Below, in pieces: positions 2,549 to 64,000 of a stretch of 64,000 nt of DNA; the stretch's first letter is position 1; the number at the start of each line of letters is the position of its first letter. This DNA comes from a virus, in the IMG/VR virus record IMGVR_UViG_3300045988_173593, positions 1-64,000 of that record. The stretch is one strand, 5' to 3'. The notes under the pieces were generated by a model. It had not been told where the DNA came from. It made no database searches and was given only the letters and a program-made list of their open reading frames with translations. The position numbers and the translations under genes are program-made.

Positions 2549-2612
2549 AATCAAATATTTTTCTATTATTTTTTATTTTCTGCTGTATAATAGAAGCGAA
2601 AGGAGCTTGATT

Positions 2613-3623
2613 ATGCCATATATTACACCGGAAATAAAAAAGGCCCTGCTGAACTTAATAGAAGATGAAGGTTCAGCGCTTGAACTATCCAGAAAGACGG
2701 GAATTTCTCATTCCACATTCAGCAAGTATATTTCAGGGGGAATCTCGCGAATAAATCAGGCAAATTGGAACCTGATAGCCCCCTTGCTATTACCATATTT
2801 ACCGGAAATAGAACGCGACAAAGTAAGAAGTCAATTAACAGTTCGACAGCAAATCAATCCGGAAAGACATACCCCCCCGGCCACTCGCAACACAATCCGC
2901 AACACTCCGGAACTCCGCGAGTGTATTAAAGATGCGATGCTGGAACAGGGAATCCGTGGCGCGTCTGAGTTGTGTAAACAGATTGGATATGATACTCCCG
3001 GGACTTTGGAGCGGCTTCTCTCCGGCAAGATCAACTGGTTTCCAGACATGCTGTCCGCTGTTCTGGATAATCTGAAGATCAACCATGATGATGCGCCGAT
3101 GTCGCCGGCGGAACGTGGTTTGTTGCAGCCGGAGGGAATTTATTACAATGACGGAACACCGAAAACCCGTGCAGTTCTTGTGCATTATCAGCCCGTGATA
3201 TCATGGGCGAATGCAGCAAGTTATATTGATTGTTTGATTAGCAACGATGGAGCAGTAATGAAAAAATGGAGTCCGGATGAGGTAGATGAAACGGTTCCGG
3301 TGCCTCTGGATATACGCGGAGTTTGTTCAATTTTCCGGATTTCCGGTCAGTCGATGGAACCGGCGATTAATGACGGAGATATTATTTATTGCGAACAGAT
3401 GATGGATTTGCATACCATTCCTGACAAGCGTGTTGTGGTTGTAAAGTTTTCGGACTGCAACAAGTTTGAGGATTGTATTGTCTGCAAACGTTTCCGCCGA
3501 ATCGGTGATAAGATTCTCTTGACCAGTGACAATCCAGCCGGTCGTGAGTTTGAACTTGAACCGCAGGATATTACATGGATCGGAATCCTCCGCAAATTGA
3601 CCAAGAACGGTGATACTATATGA
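2613..3623 (+). CDS. CI/LexA-like repressor: N-terminal HTH regions plus C-terminal S24 peptidase (SGQSMEP ... K)
   Basis: Ser-Lys dyad motif GQSMEPAINDGD and a downstream Lys. RBS AAGGAG before the ATG. The ORF opens at a TTG at 2607. Confidence 0.85.
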   Translation: MPYITPEIKKALLNLIEDEGSALELSRKTGISHSTFSKYISGGISRINQANWNLIAPLLLPYLPEIERDKVRSQLTVRQQINPERHTPPATRNTIRNTPELRECIKDAMLEQGIRGASELCKQIGYDTPGTLERLLSGKINWFPDMLSAVLDNLKINHDDAPMSPAERGLLQPEGIYYNDGTPKTRAVLVHYQPVISWANAASYIDCLISNDGAVMKKWSPDEVDETVPVPLDIRGVCSIFRISGQSMEPAINDGDIIYCEQMMDLHTIPDKRVVVVKFSDCNKFEDCIVCKRFRRIGDKILLTSDNPAGREFELEPQDITWIGILRKLTKNGDTI

Positions 3624-3720: not shown

Positions 3721-3996
3721 ATGGAAGATGAAATTAAATTTCTGAAAGAACGTATTGCAAGACTGGAAGAACGTATCCAGTATGCAGATGAAAAAATAAG
3801 ATCCAATAAGGTATCTGTTTATTTCATTTTTTTAATCTTGATAGTGTTCTTTTTTCTCGTGATGGAATTATACTATCGGGACGGAGAAAAAGCCGAAGTC
3901 CTTAAGGTGCTTGATTCAAAAGAGACAACGGAACAACGTTATATGCTGATGGATGATAAAAGGGAGCAGATAAAAAGTGGCACTCAGAATCATTAA
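3721..3996 (+). CDS. small coiled-coil/TM protein
   Basis: RBS AAAAAGGGAAACGG. One TM segment. Confidence 0.4.
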   Translation: MEDEIKFLKERIARLEERIQYADEKIRSNKVSVYFIFLILIVFFFLVMELYYRDGEKAEVLKVLDSKETTEQRYMLMDDKREQIKSGTQNH

Positions 3997-5080
3997 AAAC
4001 AGATACTATATGTATTTCCGGGACGAGCACGGAAAGCTCCGGACAATTGCCACTCATGCTTCACTTAATGAAAAAGAAGAGGCTCTGGCGTTTGAAAAAG
4101 AATACATGACACAACTTCGTGCCAAAAAGCGACGCCTCCGGATTTTAAAGGACTTCCCCGAATATGTCGCCATCCAGCCGGAAGCCAAACCGGATTTTGT
4201 AGCGGAAGCCCAGCAGCAGAGACGCGGAAGTATGAAATTATCTGAAATGTGGGAAACCGCTTGTAAATACAGGCAACTTTCCGACACTCATAAAAAGGCG
4301 TTGGAACGCTTCATAAAATCAACAAAATTGAAGTATGTATCTGATGTAACTCCCCAAATTGCACTTGCCTACCTTACAAATACCTATGGAGCAGGGAATG
4401 GAAAAACATTCAATAATAATAAAACATACTTGAATACTATTTTCAAACTTTGTGTTGTGGAGTCTGGTATTTCTGGTTCTCCTTTTGATTCAGTTTTGAA
4501 TATGCGCTTGAAAAATGTTGAAGTCCACAGGAAAATAACAGTTGAAGAGTTCAACCGTCTGTTTCATGCCGCTGCTGAACCATGGAAAACAGCCCTTTTA
4601 ATGTCATGGCATACAGGAATGAGGGTAAGTGATTGCTTTACCTTGAAATGGGACGAAATTCAAGGTGATGCGATTATAAAAATTCCTAATAAGACATTGC
4701 GCTTCAATCGTTCTGTTTATATCCCAATACATAAAGAGTTGCAAGATCATTTGAATACATTACCGAAGCCAAAAGACAAAAAACAAGCTGTTTTATCGCC
4801 GTTTCTTACATCAAGATTCAAACGGGTTTCCGGTGCTAGAATGCGCTATATCCAGAATCTTTTCAAAACATGTAAGGTTTTAGATACAAAAGATGGAAAA
4901 GCCAGCTTTCACAGTCTTCGTGCAACGTTTATTACACGTTGCGAAGAAGCGGGAATTCCCCGTTCGGCAATTCGTGGTATGGTAGGTCATGTATCCGATG
5001 TTACAACAGATAATTATAGTCAGGACAAGGTAACTCCACGCCTGATATTAAACTTGCCATCTGTATGTAAAAATGTATGA
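3977..5080 (+). CDS. int: tyrosine recombinase / phage integrase
   Basis: C-terminal HSLRATF...GH...Y catalytic signature. Arm-binding-type N-terminus. Lies adjacent to the att core. Confidence 0.9.
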   Translation: MALRIIKNRYYMYFRDEHGKLRTIATHASLNEKEEALAFEKEYMTQLRAKKRRLRILKDFPEYVAIQPEAKPDFVAEAQQQRRGSMKLSEMWETACKYRQLSDTHKKALERFIKSTKLKYVSDVTPQIALAYLTNTYGAGNGKTFNNNKTYLNTIFKLCVVESGISGSPFDSVLNMRLKNVEVHRKITVEEFNRLFHAAAEPWKTALLMSWHTGMRVSDCFTLKWDEIQGDAIIKIPNKTLRFNRSVYIPIHKELQDHLNTLPKPKDKKQAVLSPFLTSRFKRVSGARMRYIQNLFKTCKVLDTKDGKASFHSLRATFITRCEEAGIPRSAIRGMVGHVSDVTTDNYSQDKVTPRLILNLPSVCKNV

Positions 5081-43900: not shown

Positions 43901-44485
43901 ATGATTACAATCAAATTTATGGATGATAGAAAGTCGATTGAGATAGACGCTGAAACAATTGTCGAAGCATTAGAAACGGCGCTCTCTGATGGTGTTGACT
44001 TACGCCATGTAGACTTGCGCGGGGCTTGCTTGACCGGTGTTGACTTGCGCGATGCCTGCTTGCGCGGGGCTTGCTTGACCGATGCTGACGTTAGCTATGC
44101 TGAGTTGATCGGGGCTGATTTGACCGGTGCTGAGTTGACCCGTGCTGATTTGACCGGTACTGATTTGACCGATGCCTGCTTGACCGATGCTTGCTTGCGC
44201 CATGCTTGCTTGCGCCGTGCTTGCTTGACCCGTACTGATTTGACCGGTACTGATTTGACCGATGCCTGCTTGACCGATGCTTGCTTGATCAATGCTGATC
44301 TGCTCGGGGCCTGCTTGACCGATGCTGACGTTAGCTATGCTGATTTGACCGGTGCTGATTTAACCCGTGCTGATTTGACCGGTGCTGATTTGACCCATGC
44401 TGATTTGAGCGGTGCCCGCTTGACCGATGCTTGCTTGATCGATGCTTGCTTGATCGATGCCTGCTTGACCGGTGCAATTCGATAA
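43901..44485 (+). CDS. pentapeptide-repeat protein
   Basis: Dozens of A(D/C)L(T/R)x pentapeptides. RBS AAAGAGGTG. Confidence 0.75.
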   Translation: MITIKFMDDRKSIEIDAETIVEALETALSDGVDLRHVDLRGACLTGVDLRDACLRGACLTDADVSYAELIGADLTGAELTRADLTGTDLTDACLTDACLRHACLRRACLTRTDLTGTDLTDACLTDACLINADLLGACLTDADVSYADLTGADLTRADLTGADLTHADLSGARLTDACLIDACLIDACLTGAIR

Positions 44486-62275: not shown

Positions 62276-62563
62276 TTACCGCCCTCCGAGCTGATAATCC
62301 AGTATCAGGATGCCTTTGATCTCCTGCTTGAGCTTGCCCTCTATCGGCAGGGTGTCGATGTAGCGGTAGATTGCCTCCCGGTCGGCGATGGCTTCCGCGG
62401 CGAGCGTGATAGCCCCGAACGGATTGCGTTTGATTCTCTGTTGCACCGTTGCCGGGAAACCATACCAGATCGGACGTGTCGGGAATTGTTCCTGGTCGTG
62501 GCGTTGCGCCAGTGAGATTGCTTCTTCATTCAGTGGAAGCCGGTTTGTGTGTCTGCAATTCAT
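62276..62563 (-). CDS. hypothetical early protein (MNCRHTNRLPL...)
   Basis: RBS GGAGG. First gene after the triple promoter-terminator array. Confidence 0.55.
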   Translation of the reverse strand: MNCRHTNRLPLNEEAISLAQRHDQEQFPTRPIWYGFPATVQQRIKRNPFGAITLAAEAIADREAIYRYIDTLPIEGKLKQEIKGILILDYQLGGR

Positions 62564-62634
62564 GCTCTCGCCTCCTTGTGATTAGCGAACATTTTTAATG
62601 TGTTTCTTTTCTGCCGGTTCAGAGCAAAAAAGAA

Positions 62635-62695
62635 GGCTTGCGGGGTTGAACCACGAGTCACAAGTCTCGCCTGTCCGAAGACAGCCCCGCAAGCC
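62635..62695 (-). terminator. cassette 1 terminator-like hairpin (11-bp perfect stem GGCTTGCGGGG, 39-nt loop) followed by a U-run on the minus strand
   Basis: Read directly. Confidence 0.5.
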
Positions 62696-62787
62696 AAAAT
62701 AAAACGCTTGCATGAAAAAATCGGGAGTGTGCCGTTTGACGGTACGACTGCCGCTTGTGAATCGAGTGGTTCAGACCCAATGCCTTT

Positions 62788-62816
62788 ACAATAGCCTGAG
62801 CTTTCACCGAAGTCAA
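62788..62816 (-). promoter_or_regulatory. cassette 1 promoter (minus: TTGACT-17-TATTGT) with CCGCTTGACT context
   Basis: Read directly. Confidence 0.5.
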
Positions 62817-62826
62817 GCGGCTTTCT

Positions 62827-62913
62827 GAAAAAAGTTGCGATTTTTTTCGTGTCCGCGCTCTGCGGCGCGGCGGCGTCCCGGATCGGTATCCGGCTCGTGT
62901 GTCGGCAAATCAT
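62827..62913 (-). promoter_or_regulatory. conserved 87-nt block copy A: A/T-rich UP-like tract, two small hairpins, a GGAGG-N6-ATG pseudo-start
   Basis: Near-identical to 63182-63267. Confidence 0.5.
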
Positions 62914-62978
62914 GGTTACCTCCTTCTGCAAAGGTTATTGATTGCTTTTTTGAGCCGTTTTCACGCGGGCACAAAAAA

Positions 62979-63049
62979 GGACTTGAAGAGGTTGAAAACA
63001 CGGCAGAAGACGTGCGCCGATCCTTACGGGTACAGCCCTCTCCAAGTCC
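62979..63049 (-). terminator. cassette 2 terminator-like hairpin (13-bp stem, 1 mismatch) plus a U-run
   Basis: Read directly. Confidence 0.5.
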
Positions 63050-63142
63050 AATAATAGACCTGAGGTATAAATGTTGGGATTTGTTGCCTTGACGGAAACA
63101 ACGCCCGCTTCTGCTTTCAGAGTTTTCAAGCTCCTTGCCTTT

Positions 63143-63171
63143 ACAATAATCGGCAGGGCTTGCGATTTCAA
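63143..63171 (-). promoter_or_regulatory. cassette 2 promoter (minus: TTGAAA-17-TATTGT)
   Basis: Read directly. The downstream TATTGTAAAGGCA is shared with cassette 1. Confidence 0.5.
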
Positions 63172-63181
63172 GCGGGTTTTC

Positions 63182-63267
63182 GGAAAAGTTGCGATTTTTT
63201 TCGTGTCCGCGCTCTGCGGCGCGGCGGCGTCCCGGATCGGTATCCGGCTCGTGTGTCGGCAAATCAT
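63182..63267 (-). promoter_or_regulatory. conserved 87-nt block copy B
   Basis: Near-identical to copy A. Confidence 0.5.
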
Positions 63268-63333
63268 TGCTTGCACCTCTATTGCTAAGGATTTTCGTTA
63301 TCCTCTTTCGCGCCGTTCCAAGGGCACAAAAAA

Positions 63334-63394
63334 GGGCTTGAGGGTTGGAACACGTGACTAACGACACGCCAGCCTTACGGCTGCCCTCAAGCCC
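63334..63394 (-). terminator. cassette 3 terminator-like hairpin (11-bp perfect stem GGGCTTGAGGG) plus a U-run
   Basis: Read directly. Confidence 0.5.
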
Positions 63395-63500
63395 AAAATC
63401 AAAACACAATGATTCGGTCTTGTAAAAATTACGGGAATCGTGCGCCGAGTTGACGGAACGACTGCCGCGTTAGTAAAGGGGTTCCAATCCCAATACTGGG

Positions 63501-63529
63501 AATATAACTCTAAAACCCCGTAATATCAA
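63501..63529 (-). promoter_or_regulatory. cassette 3 promoter (minus: TTGATA-17-TATATT)
   Basis: Read directly. Confidence 0.45.
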
Positions 63530-63610: not shown

Positions 63611-64000
63611 ATGCAAATAAAATGTAGCAAGTGTGGTCAATTATATAACGTTGACTTTTCCTTGGTTGGAAGAAAAGTTGAATGTGTTTGCGGTTTCAAG
63701 TGGTTTTTGCGTGAGCCTATGCCGCAAATAATGCCAGCTCGATCTCTTAACGAAGAACTTGAAGCAATATCTATGGAAGATATAGCGCGGTTCCCGGAAA
63801 AAACTGCTCAAAGAATATCAAATGCTATTTCAGCGCAATACATGAATTACATTAAAAAGACAAATATTATACAAGAAGAGTCTTTTAATGACGCTTATGA
63901 AAGTTTGAAAAATAATTGTGCATACGGTAATCCGGTTCCTGGCGTCTTTAAAGAGTTTTTCAAGTTATGCCGTAAAAAGAATACTGAAGATAAAAAGGCA
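63611..64000 (+). CDS. partial ORF (runs off the window) with an N-terminal zinc ribbon (CSKCG...CVCG)
   Basis: RBS AAAAAGGGGAAACAAA-ATG identical in style to the RBS of 1654..2049. No stop before the window end. Confidence 0.5.
   Translation, partial: MQIKCSKCGQLYNVDFSLVGRKVECVCGFKWFLREPMPQIMPARSLNEELEAISMEDIARFPEKTAQRISNAISAQYMNYIKKTNIIQEESFNDAYESLKNNCAYGNPVPGVFKEFFKLCRKKNTEDKKA

Follow-up and report, generated by a model that had tools for sequence, protein, structure and literature searches.

The stretch of viral DNA analysed here, referred to as the window, comprises 64,000 nucleotides (nt; positions 1 to 64,000 of the IMG/VR virus record IMGVR_UViG_3300045988_173593). Close to its end, two almost identical blocks at 62827-62913 and 63182-63267 had been described in an initial annotation as carrying, in minus orientation, a ribosome binding site (RBS), an ATG and about 10 codons which mimic the start of the gene downstream. 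The blocks are located on the minus strand, between a divergent plus-strand gene starting at 63611 and a gene at 62563..62276 for a protein of 95 amino acids (aa). This region is occupied by three tandem units of about 355 nt each, here called cassettes 1 to 3, with block 1 (63182-63267) between cassettes 1 and 2 and block 2 between cassettes 2 and 3. In the following, the cassettes are described as modules of c4-type antisense RNA, and the blocks are interpreted as stubs of a first gene, which were probably left at the module junctions by recombination.

The three cassettes encode c4-type antisense RNAs

Each cassette contains a promoter, predicted by a consensus scan which gave six promoter-like sites versus 1.4 expected, and a structured RNA followed by a U-run. 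The last cassette precedes the first real gene of the early operon.

63501..63529, minus strand: predicted promoter of cassette 1, TTGATA-17-TATATT (10/12 matches)
63334..63394, minus strand: c4-like RNA 1, a junction of P1, P2 and P3, b' loop UCGUUAGU, a' GUUCCAA, then a U-run at 63333-63328
63143..63171, minus strand: predicted promoter of cassette 2, TTGAAA-17-TATTGT
62979..63049, minus strand: c4-like RNA 2, with a longer P2, b' UCUUCUGC, a' UUUUCAA, then a U-run
62788..62816, minus strand: predicted promoter of cassette 3, TTGACT-17-TATTGT
62635..62695, minus strand: c4-like RNA 3, b' ACUUGUGA, a' GGUUCAA, then a U-run
62276..62563, minus strand: first real early gene, 95 aa, followed by the early operon (RecT / DUF2800-PD-(D/E)XK)

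In predictions of the minimum free energy fold, all three cassettes form the same three-helix junction, in which P1 encloses P2 and P3 and is followed by the U-run. These structures had been noted before as giant hairpins; they represent antisense RNAs of the c4 type, which is known from phage P1/P7. In an E-value scan of Rfam, 63334-63394 (-) matched the C4 family (RF01695) with P1, P2 and P3 aligned, at 33.1 bits (E = 6e-4). At the gathering threshold no Rfam match was obtained in the whole window, and the E-value scan of six related loci gave none either. Since the gathering score is an operational threshold which was not reached, the elements are filed as c4-type and not as curated members of the family.

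A covariance model was built from nine c4-like elements. On the minus strand of the 64-kb window it matched exactly three elements (85.5 bits for RNA 1, 70 for RNA 3 and 33.1 for RNA 2, the latter with E = 3e-5), and it matched 24 more in related loci, all relatives being ENA/Logan contigs that were reached through protein look-ups. Aligned with MAFFT, the full set of c4-like RNAs gave a structurally inconsistent result, and the alignment to the covariance model was used instead. In this alignment, 99.8% of the cells are paired and compensatory changes are present in 15 of the 21 pairs; the observed values were reached by none of 500 shuffles, and slid controls paired 28-48% of the cells. The P2 loops are mostly of the GNRA or UNCG type (GUAA, GAAA, GCAA, GUGA, GCGA, UUCG), with two variants that have UUUU or an unpaired longer loop, and helix P1 begins with GG in every element.

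Four target sites change together with each RNA

For the c4 RNA of P1 and P7, it has been described that a' and b' pair with a1/b1 upstream and with a2/b2 downstream, of which b2 overlaps the RBS (PMC2864571 supplement; PMC5320573). In the elements described here, a' is the 3' junction strand and b' is the loop of P3, and both are exact complements of four sites that change together between modules. In the window, these are:

63468..63487, minus strand: a1 (63487-63481, TTGGAAC) and b1 (63474-63468, ACTAACG) of cassette 1, exact complements of a' and b'
63315..63321, minus strand: a2 of cassette 1, TTGGAAC, exact complement of a' at the conserved +12 position
63275..63286, minus strand: b2-like site of cassette 1, fused to the Shine-Dalgarno (SD) sequence of block 1 (AGCAATAGAGGT; AGCAAUAGAGG at 63286-76), not cognate to RNA 1
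63108..63129, minus strand: a1 (63129-63123, TTGAAAA) and b1 (63114-63108, GCAGAAG) of cassette 2, by complementarity
62958..62963, minus strand: a2 of cassette 2, TGAAAA, by complementarity
62919..62929, minus strand: b2 of cassette 2, fused to the SD of block 2 (GCAGAAGGAGG) and matching b' UCUUCUGC, the cognate target of RNA 2
62754..62773, minus strand: a1 (62773-62767, TGAACCA) and b1 (62760-62754, TCACAAG) of cassette 3, by complementarity
within 62571..62621, minus strand: a2 of cassette 3 (62621-62616, TGAACC), before the real 95-aa gene, by complementarity
62581-62571, minus strand: b2 of cassette 3, fused to the SD (TCACAAGGAGG; UCACAAGGAGG matching b' ACUUGUGA), at the RBS of the 95-aa gene

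Relative to the RNA, a1 is found at -78 to -93, b1 at -65 to -82, a2 at +12 to +15 and b2 at +45 to +53, where it directly abuts GGAGG or GAGG. The survey of complementarity covered 29 distinct modules, among which 22 distinct b' loops occur, and required a Watson-Crick run of at least 6 nt. Exact complementarity was relied on because duplex energies were noisy when stem nucleotides were included. Cognate runs of at least 6 nt are present for b'/b2 in 26, for a'/a2 in 27, for b'/b1 in 28 and for a'/a1 in 27 of the 29 modules, whereas non-cognate combinations reach this length in just 8-14% of cases.

In the window, the complementarity to a1 and b1 holds in all three cassettes and that to a2 and b2 in cassettes 2 and 3; downstream of cassette 1, a2 matches and b2 does not. 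The RBS-ATG of the blocks is thus located at the antisense target (b2) position, being cognate in block 2 and non-cognate in block 1, where b2 is of the L002A/L004 type and matches the b' of the L002A-type module. Both the position of the block RBS at b2 and the nature of the cassettes as c4-type modules had been overlooked in the initial annotation. A b2 at the SD which is mismatched to the b' of the upstream RNA was seen in three modules (63275-63286 of the window, L004 1185-1197 and L018 ~240-255). Cassette 1 of the window and L004 carry the L002A-type sequence GCAAUAGAGG, and L018 carries AAACAAGGAGG. Such modules look like mosaic recombinants or possible immunity-escape variants.

The blocks consist of a gene stub and a promoter-upstream tract

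The near-identity of the two blocks was borne out on closer analysis. A repeat finder paired 62830-62924 with 63184-63278 at 95% identity across 95 nt and a spacing of 354 nt, and in the alignment 84 nt counted from each ATG (63267-63184 and 62913-62830, -) are 100% identical. The mismatches are confined to the 11 nt before the ATG, i.e., the RBS region, and to the stretch past the T-run. A perfect repeat of 84 nt is far above the chance expectation for 64 kb. Each block can be divided into two parts:

63199..63267, minus strand: gene-fragment part of block 1, ATG plus 23 codons (MICRHTSRIPIRDAAAPQSADTK) of a P0019-family gene; 69 nt equal to the intact gene start in L048
63172..63198, minus strand: promoter-upstream part of block 1, UP-element-like A-tract/T-tract of cassette 2; same pattern before block-less first cassettes
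62845..62913, minus strand: gene-fragment part of block 2, the same 23 codons, by repeat and alignment
62817..62844, minus strand: promoter-upstream A/T tract of cassette 3 in block 2, by alignment

In minus orientation, both blocks open with an SD, a spacer and ATGATTTGCCGACACACGAGCCGG. The start of the 95-aa gene reads GGAGGCGAGAGC-ATGAATTGCAGACACACAAACCGG and encodes MNCRHTNRLPL, versus MICRHTSRIPI in the blocks. The likeness is limited to the first ~33 nt after the ATG, at about 70%, and in BLASTP 8 of the 15 N-terminal residues of the block peptide were identical to the 95-aa protein, with no match further on. A derivation of the blocks from the 95-aa gene itself was rejected on the basis of these few shared residues. 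The resemblance to the start of the downstream gene exists over some 33 nt; the parent of the blocks is a gene of the P0019 family.

This parent was found by a protein database search with the reading frame that starts in block 1, which returned P0019, a protein whose first 23 residues are those encoded by the block. The P0019 family has six members of 75-79 aa with 64-86% identity, conserved over their full length, one of which originates from a Victivallales metagenome-assembled genome (MAG). In the related locus L048, a w2-type cassette is followed by an SD-ATG with an intact open reading frame (ORF) of 77 aa, and then by a gene of the Rha family (Phage_pRha). Over its first 69 nt (23 codons; 69 of 69 identities), the 77-aa ORF agrees with both blocks of the window. 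Beyond codon 23 the sequences diverge, the L048 gene going on with TTCATCCTG... and the blocks with AAAATCGCAAC... The blocks hence match the 5' end of an independently conserved intact gene and leave it at a discrete junction. Among the roles that had been considered for them, duplicated 5' gene fragments left by recombination is the one which is supported. Because L048 carries a truncated copy of the block upstream of its cassette, the duplicated unit is taken to extend from the promoter over the c4 RNA to b2-SD-ATG and the 23 codons.

Stubs of a similar kind are present in other arrays, each derived from the first gene of the array itself and cut at a different point (13-39 codons). L007 contains stubs of 16 and 22 codons of its own first gene MNCRSTSTFPVNGEAIALAQRH, L050 a stub of 13 codons (MTYVQYQGQY... 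in the stub, MVHVNYQGRC... in the gene), and L053 one of 39 codons of a similar first gene. Within a phage group, unrelated first genes share just their first ~11-15 codons: MxCRHTxRxPx is common to the P0019 and 95-aa families (window 62561-62530 versus 63267-63235), and M(T/V)(Y/H)V(Q/N)YQG is common to YqaJ-type phages (L050 3001-3040 versus 3334-3375). Apparently it is the antisense module, and not the gene, that the ORF start moves with.

The last ~25 nt of the blocks, consisting of the A-tract and T-tract, belong to the promoter that follows, since first cassettes without a stub carry them too. The A-tract lies 30-50 nt upstream of the consensus-like promoters 63171-63143 and 62816-62788, and relative to the -35 box the A/T tract is located 30-55 nt upstream. 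Its earlier description as UP-element-like fits this placement and its presence before the block-less first cassettes. From the A/T tract of block 2, a weak terminator-like hairpin with a T-run can be formed on the plus strand (62817-62838), which is probably incidental.

Two small hairpins noted in the block are predicted by folding; however, for the entire block the fold is no better than that of shuffled sequence (z = -1.14, with 27 of 200 shuffles folding equally well). On account of this value, and of the unrelated stubs in other arrays, the blocks were rejected as a conserved RNA element. A small hairpin at nt +21 to +38 was observed in several first-gene alleles (CCGGAUACCGAUCCGG, CCCCGUCAACGGGG, CCCGAUCACGGG, CCCCGUCCACGGGG), with sites at 63230-63247 and 62876-62893 of the window and at L001 4024-4040. 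A similar motif, GUCGUUCCGUCAAC(U)CGG, is located 9 nt after b1 in each cassette leader (63467-63440, 62753-62730). With X denoting this motif, the segments a1-b1-X and a2-b2-SD-ATG-X look, as far as can be judged from the sequences, like an old internal duplication.

Reading frames from the block ATGs run open through the next cassette

From the ATG of each block, a frame runs into the cassette downstream:

62935..63267, minus strand: spacer ORF 1, 110 codons, from the ATG of block 1; TAA at 62937-62935, 5 nt before b2 of cassette 2
62560..62913, minus strand: spacer ORF 2, 117 codons, from the ATG of block 2 through cassette 3; its TGA overlaps the ATG of the 95-aa gene (ATGA)

Spacer ORF 1 reads through promoter 2, a1/b1, c4-like RNA 2 and the U-run of this RNA, and the inter-cassette stub ORFs all cross the next promoter, leader, c4-like RNA and U-run in the same manner. 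Their stops lie close to the next start. An overlap as ATGA is found for ORF 2, in L002, three times in L007 and in L009, and a stop 3-24 nt before the next start for ORF 1, L013 and L050. The ORF frame contains 0-1 stops, versus 2-15 in at least one other frame; in dinucleotide shuffles of the spacer ORFs, p values of 0.001-0.09 per ORF were obtained. In all 10 internal cassettes, the frame that the upstream ATG sets is free of stops, with 2-8 stops in at least one other frame. For the GGGCUUGAGGG type, found exclusively in first position, that frame is open in none of nine cases and contains 1-4 stops.

Among six homologous w2-type ORFs, all indels are of 3 nt. The pairwise differences at codon positions 1, 2 and 3 are 0.174, 0.191 and 0.205, so that an excess of third-position change, as for a conserved peptide, and codon periodicity were not found in these six. 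Homologous promoter DNA is read in different frames by different cassette types. In these sequence comparisons the frame is thus maintained and the peptide is not, which lends moderate support to a translation that would matter in itself. The frames had been regarded as unlikely to be coding, which agrees with the lack of codon periodicity at the amino-acid level; nevertheless they are probably translated, since they are so conspicuously kept open.

In L007, and likewise in L002, a basic ORF of 33 aa (MAKTQNGKKIVHVKGYTKPDGTKVRTHRRSTPN) is inserted on the opposite strand between cassettes A and B (L007 2879-2980, -). The spacer ORF stays open across this insert (186 codons). In L013, a match to the promoter-proximal end of the insert, the 5' flank of the 33-aa ORF, is located upstream of cassette 1 (~330-480).

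Phage context and relatives

Genes for a tyrosine integrase (3977-5080, +) and for an S24-peptidase/HTH repressor-like protein (2607-3623, +) are present in the window, and the phage is therefore temperate. Both genes are located at the end of the window opposite to the cassette array. The host belongs to the Lentisphaeria/Victivallales, and the phages are from the gut. The gene divergent from cassette 1 (63611-64000, +) opens with a zinc-ribbon-like CxxC...CxC motif and has homologues, e.g., at L007 1839-2423 (-); it gave no significant Pfam match and is not recognisable as CI or Cro. No protein of the repressor type was recognised beside the arrays. Neither Pfam nor PHROG gave a match for the 95-aa gene, P0019, the small genes nearby and the divergent genes. 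The window also contains a gene for a pentapeptide-repeat protein (43901-44485, +).

The 95-aa protein has 12 homologues, and the contigs on which they are encoded (L001-L018) carry one to four cassettes before the gene. A genome scan with a 19-nt leader motif (18 specified bases) gave 29 matches, with real cassettes only in L023 and L030, both of which are Lentisphaeria MAGs. Scans of IMG/VR and JGI metagenomes for the block and the internal-promoter pattern gave 0 matches, a viral-contig search with the 95-aa protein gave none, and a search of phage GenBank entries yielded only RecT similarity, to unrelated phages. In one relative, the cassette is immediately preceded on its upstream side by genes with PAPS_reduct and Csf3 (PF27782) domains (L011 2113-3469; L012 785-2141).

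A stack of antisense modules and possible roles of the blocks

The identity of the parent gene, the structure of the RNAs and the co-varying complementarity of the a and b sites are direct observations. Taken with them, the reading to which we assign a probability of roughly 0.7 is that the blocks are P0019-type first-gene stubs from recombination, located in a stack of three c4-type immunity modules. In this reading, the blocks exist because the repeating unit is a complete antisense-RNA immunity module, with the order promoter, a1, b1, a leader of ~60-90 nt, the c4-like RNA (a', b') with its U-run, a2, b2-SD and ATG. Recombination in the 5' ~40-120 nt of the first gene would have stacked three modules of differing a'/b' specificity, and since it took place inside this gene, each internal junction would keep a target-type RBS and a gene stub. 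A block would thereby be a composite junction, made up of the truncated 5' end of a related phage's first early gene and the A/T stretch of the next promoter, and the identity over 84 nt would result from one junction being present on both sides of cassette 2 as a direct repeat.

By analogy with P1, the c4-like RNA would pair with a2 and b2 and block the ribosome site, both at block 2 and at the real gene. With moderate support, the stub frames may be translated as spacer ORFs that are indifferent to sequence and act as a translation relay: they would carry ribosomes through the terminator-like P1 stem and U-run of the next module to the next start codon. When the RBS of module n is blocked, translation and transcription would both stop before gene n+1.

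Several points weigh against parts of this interpretation. The Rfam C4 score of 33.1 bits is below the gathering score of 45, and the other two cassettes gave no match. The function of the c4-like RNAs is deduced from analogy with P1. The b2 of block 1 is complementary to none of the three resident RNAs, and its RBS may therefore be unregulated or a relic. The hairpins of the blocks are not beyond chance. As regards the relay, that frame is likewise free of stops in five first cassettes belonging to other types, the ORF examples and their statistics are not independent because the cassettes are homologous and phylogenetically related, and read-through from upstream may be unneeded because each internal cassette has its own promoter.

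A more far-reaching version, which we consider tentatively, is an RNA-only, modular immunity stack with modules from heteroimmune relatives, in which the stubs were co-opted as translated spacers and form a serial AND-gate. Temperate phages of Lentisphaeria would gather whole c4-type modules by recombination in the 5'-terminal ~70 nt of the first early gene, and a lysogen would thereby silence several rival immunity types at once. Antisense occupancy of RBS n would be linked to termination at the c4/U-run of module n+1, resulting in a series of antisense switches before the early operon.

An alternative of similarly limited plausibility is that the blocks are inert scars of module stacking, and that the open frames are accidents inherited from cassettes which happen to be stop-free in one frame. 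The free variation of the junctions and of the stub content between arrays (13-39 codons, different parent genes) is in line with this, as are the lack of selection at the amino-acid level, the first cassettes open in the same frame, the non-cognate RBS of block 1 and the modest p values of individual shuffles (0.02-0.09). However, accidents of this kind hardly account for internal cassettes of four divergent types that are open in the frame of the upstream ATG in 10 of 10 cases, for stops at or just before the next start, for indels of exclusively 3 nt in the six w2-type ORFs, or for the 1-4 stops which the always-first cassette type has in that frame.

The additional copies of a2/b2-RBS could also serve as decoys or sponges, which we regard as unlikely. 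Block 2 bears a perfect a2/b2 set for c4-like RNA 2, and for P1 a competition between a1/b1 and a2/b2 over the c4 RNA has been proposed (PMC2864571 supplement, citing Citron and Schuster 1990). Each module, however, already contains its own a1/b1 pair, the b2 of block 1 matches no resident RNA, and the sites are reached only via read-through past the U-run; a sponge is moreover not separable from the stack of modules described above by sequence alone. The roles of a ribosome or regulator decoy and of operator sites in the promoter upstream region, both suggested before, are unsupported as they were stated.

It is improbable that the blocks are conserved as protein-binding operators or UP elements of the downstream promoters. 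The A/T tract does recur upstream of every cassette promoter, but it is only these last ~25 nt that recur; the 69-nt stub is absent before first cassettes, other arrays have unrelated stubs in its place, the hairpins lack significance, and no repressor-type protein was recognised next to the arrays. Least probable of all, ORF 1 and ORF 2 would be genuine genes for small proteins (110 and 117 aa) sharing an N-terminal motif with the 95-aa protein: an SD and ATG are present, gene callers annotate these ORFs and relatives (P0013-P0018) and the frames are maintained, but the codon positions change at equal rates, homologous promoter DNA is read in different frames, the ORFs extend over a promoter, an RNA of covarying structure and a U-run, and the database relatives of ORF 1 are ORFs over the same w2-type cassette, save P0019, which matches the block only.

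Implications

The supposed start-codon mimic turned out to be a recombination stub, the real parent gene of which is present in another phage. The origin of the blocks is ordinary; their setting is an unusual form of a known system. The c4 logic extends to gut phages of Lentisphaeria/Victivallales that are not recognised by Rfam at threshold. The natural specificity variants, at least 22 with co-varying targets, provide a ready set of orthogonal pairs of RNA repressor and target. Tandem modules of differing specificity suggest how phages may exchange and accumulate RNA-based immunity, and the consistently open spacer ORFs suggest a coupling of antisense control, translation and termination.

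Comparison to known systems

Immunity of the c4 type has been studied experimentally in the phages P1 and P7, and bioinformatic reports exist for Proteobacteria and their phages. The c4 RNA of the P1/P7 immI operon (RF01695, a1b1 motif of Weinberg et al. 2010) and the elements described here share the three-helix junction, a stable P2 tetraloop and variable a' and b', with targets a1/b1 upstream and a2/b2 downstream and b2 over the RBS of a small first ORF. In both systems, the RNA gene is located upstream of its target on the same strand, in a temperate phage with a separate protein repressor. A GNRA or UNCG tetraloop has been described for P2 of C4 RNAs (Weinberg et al. 2010, PMC2864571 supplement). 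Here helix P1 opens with GG, which in the c4 RNA of phage P1 is the region of the RNase P site (PMC5320573).

The differences to the c4 family constitute what is new at this locus. The host is Lentisphaeria/Victivallales instead of Proteobacteria, and the Rfam score is below gathering. Each module has its own promoter and a terminator-like end with the U-run directly after P1, and two to four modules that differ in specificity follow each other in a tandem stack. The genes presumably regulated are of the P0019 or 95-aa family, followed by RecT/nuclease genes (in L048, by the Rha-family gene), and not icd/ant; no match to Ant, KilA or Icd was found among the 95-aa gene, the P0019 family and the downstream genes. 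Spacer ORFs which are possibly translated are a further difference.

Biere, Citron and Schuster are said to have found in 1992 that c4 of P1 blocks the translation of icd, which leads to premature termination before ant. The logic of the P1 c4-icd-ant system, and of ribosome-dependent attenuation of the trp-leader type, would be the same as the one proposed here: an upstream RBS is blocked, ribosomes are absent, and transcription ends before the gene. In contrast to these systems, the translated spacer here would itself hold the next antisense-RNA gene and its terminator-like hairpin. Such termination may be either Rho-dependent or intrinsic.

In the immunity of P4 by CI RNA (seqA/seqB/seqC) and in the control of ant by the antisense RNA sar in P22, small RNA factors originate from the leader of the repressed operon. 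Shared with the cassettes is a leader-derived small RNA which pairs with sites in the same transcript, whereas the folds differ from those of the c4-like RNAs. We know of no stacked multi-specificity modules described for P4 CI RNA or P22 sar.

A parallel to the diversity of modules is given by Acinetobacter baumannii, where multicopy C4-like sRNAs in one genome differ mainly in a' and b' (PMC5320573), as do the many c4-type RNAs described here. In A. baumannii, however, these are dispersed chromosomal copies, whereas the elements of the phage arrays form tandem modules, each with its cognate a1/b1/a2/b2 sites, RBS and gene stub.

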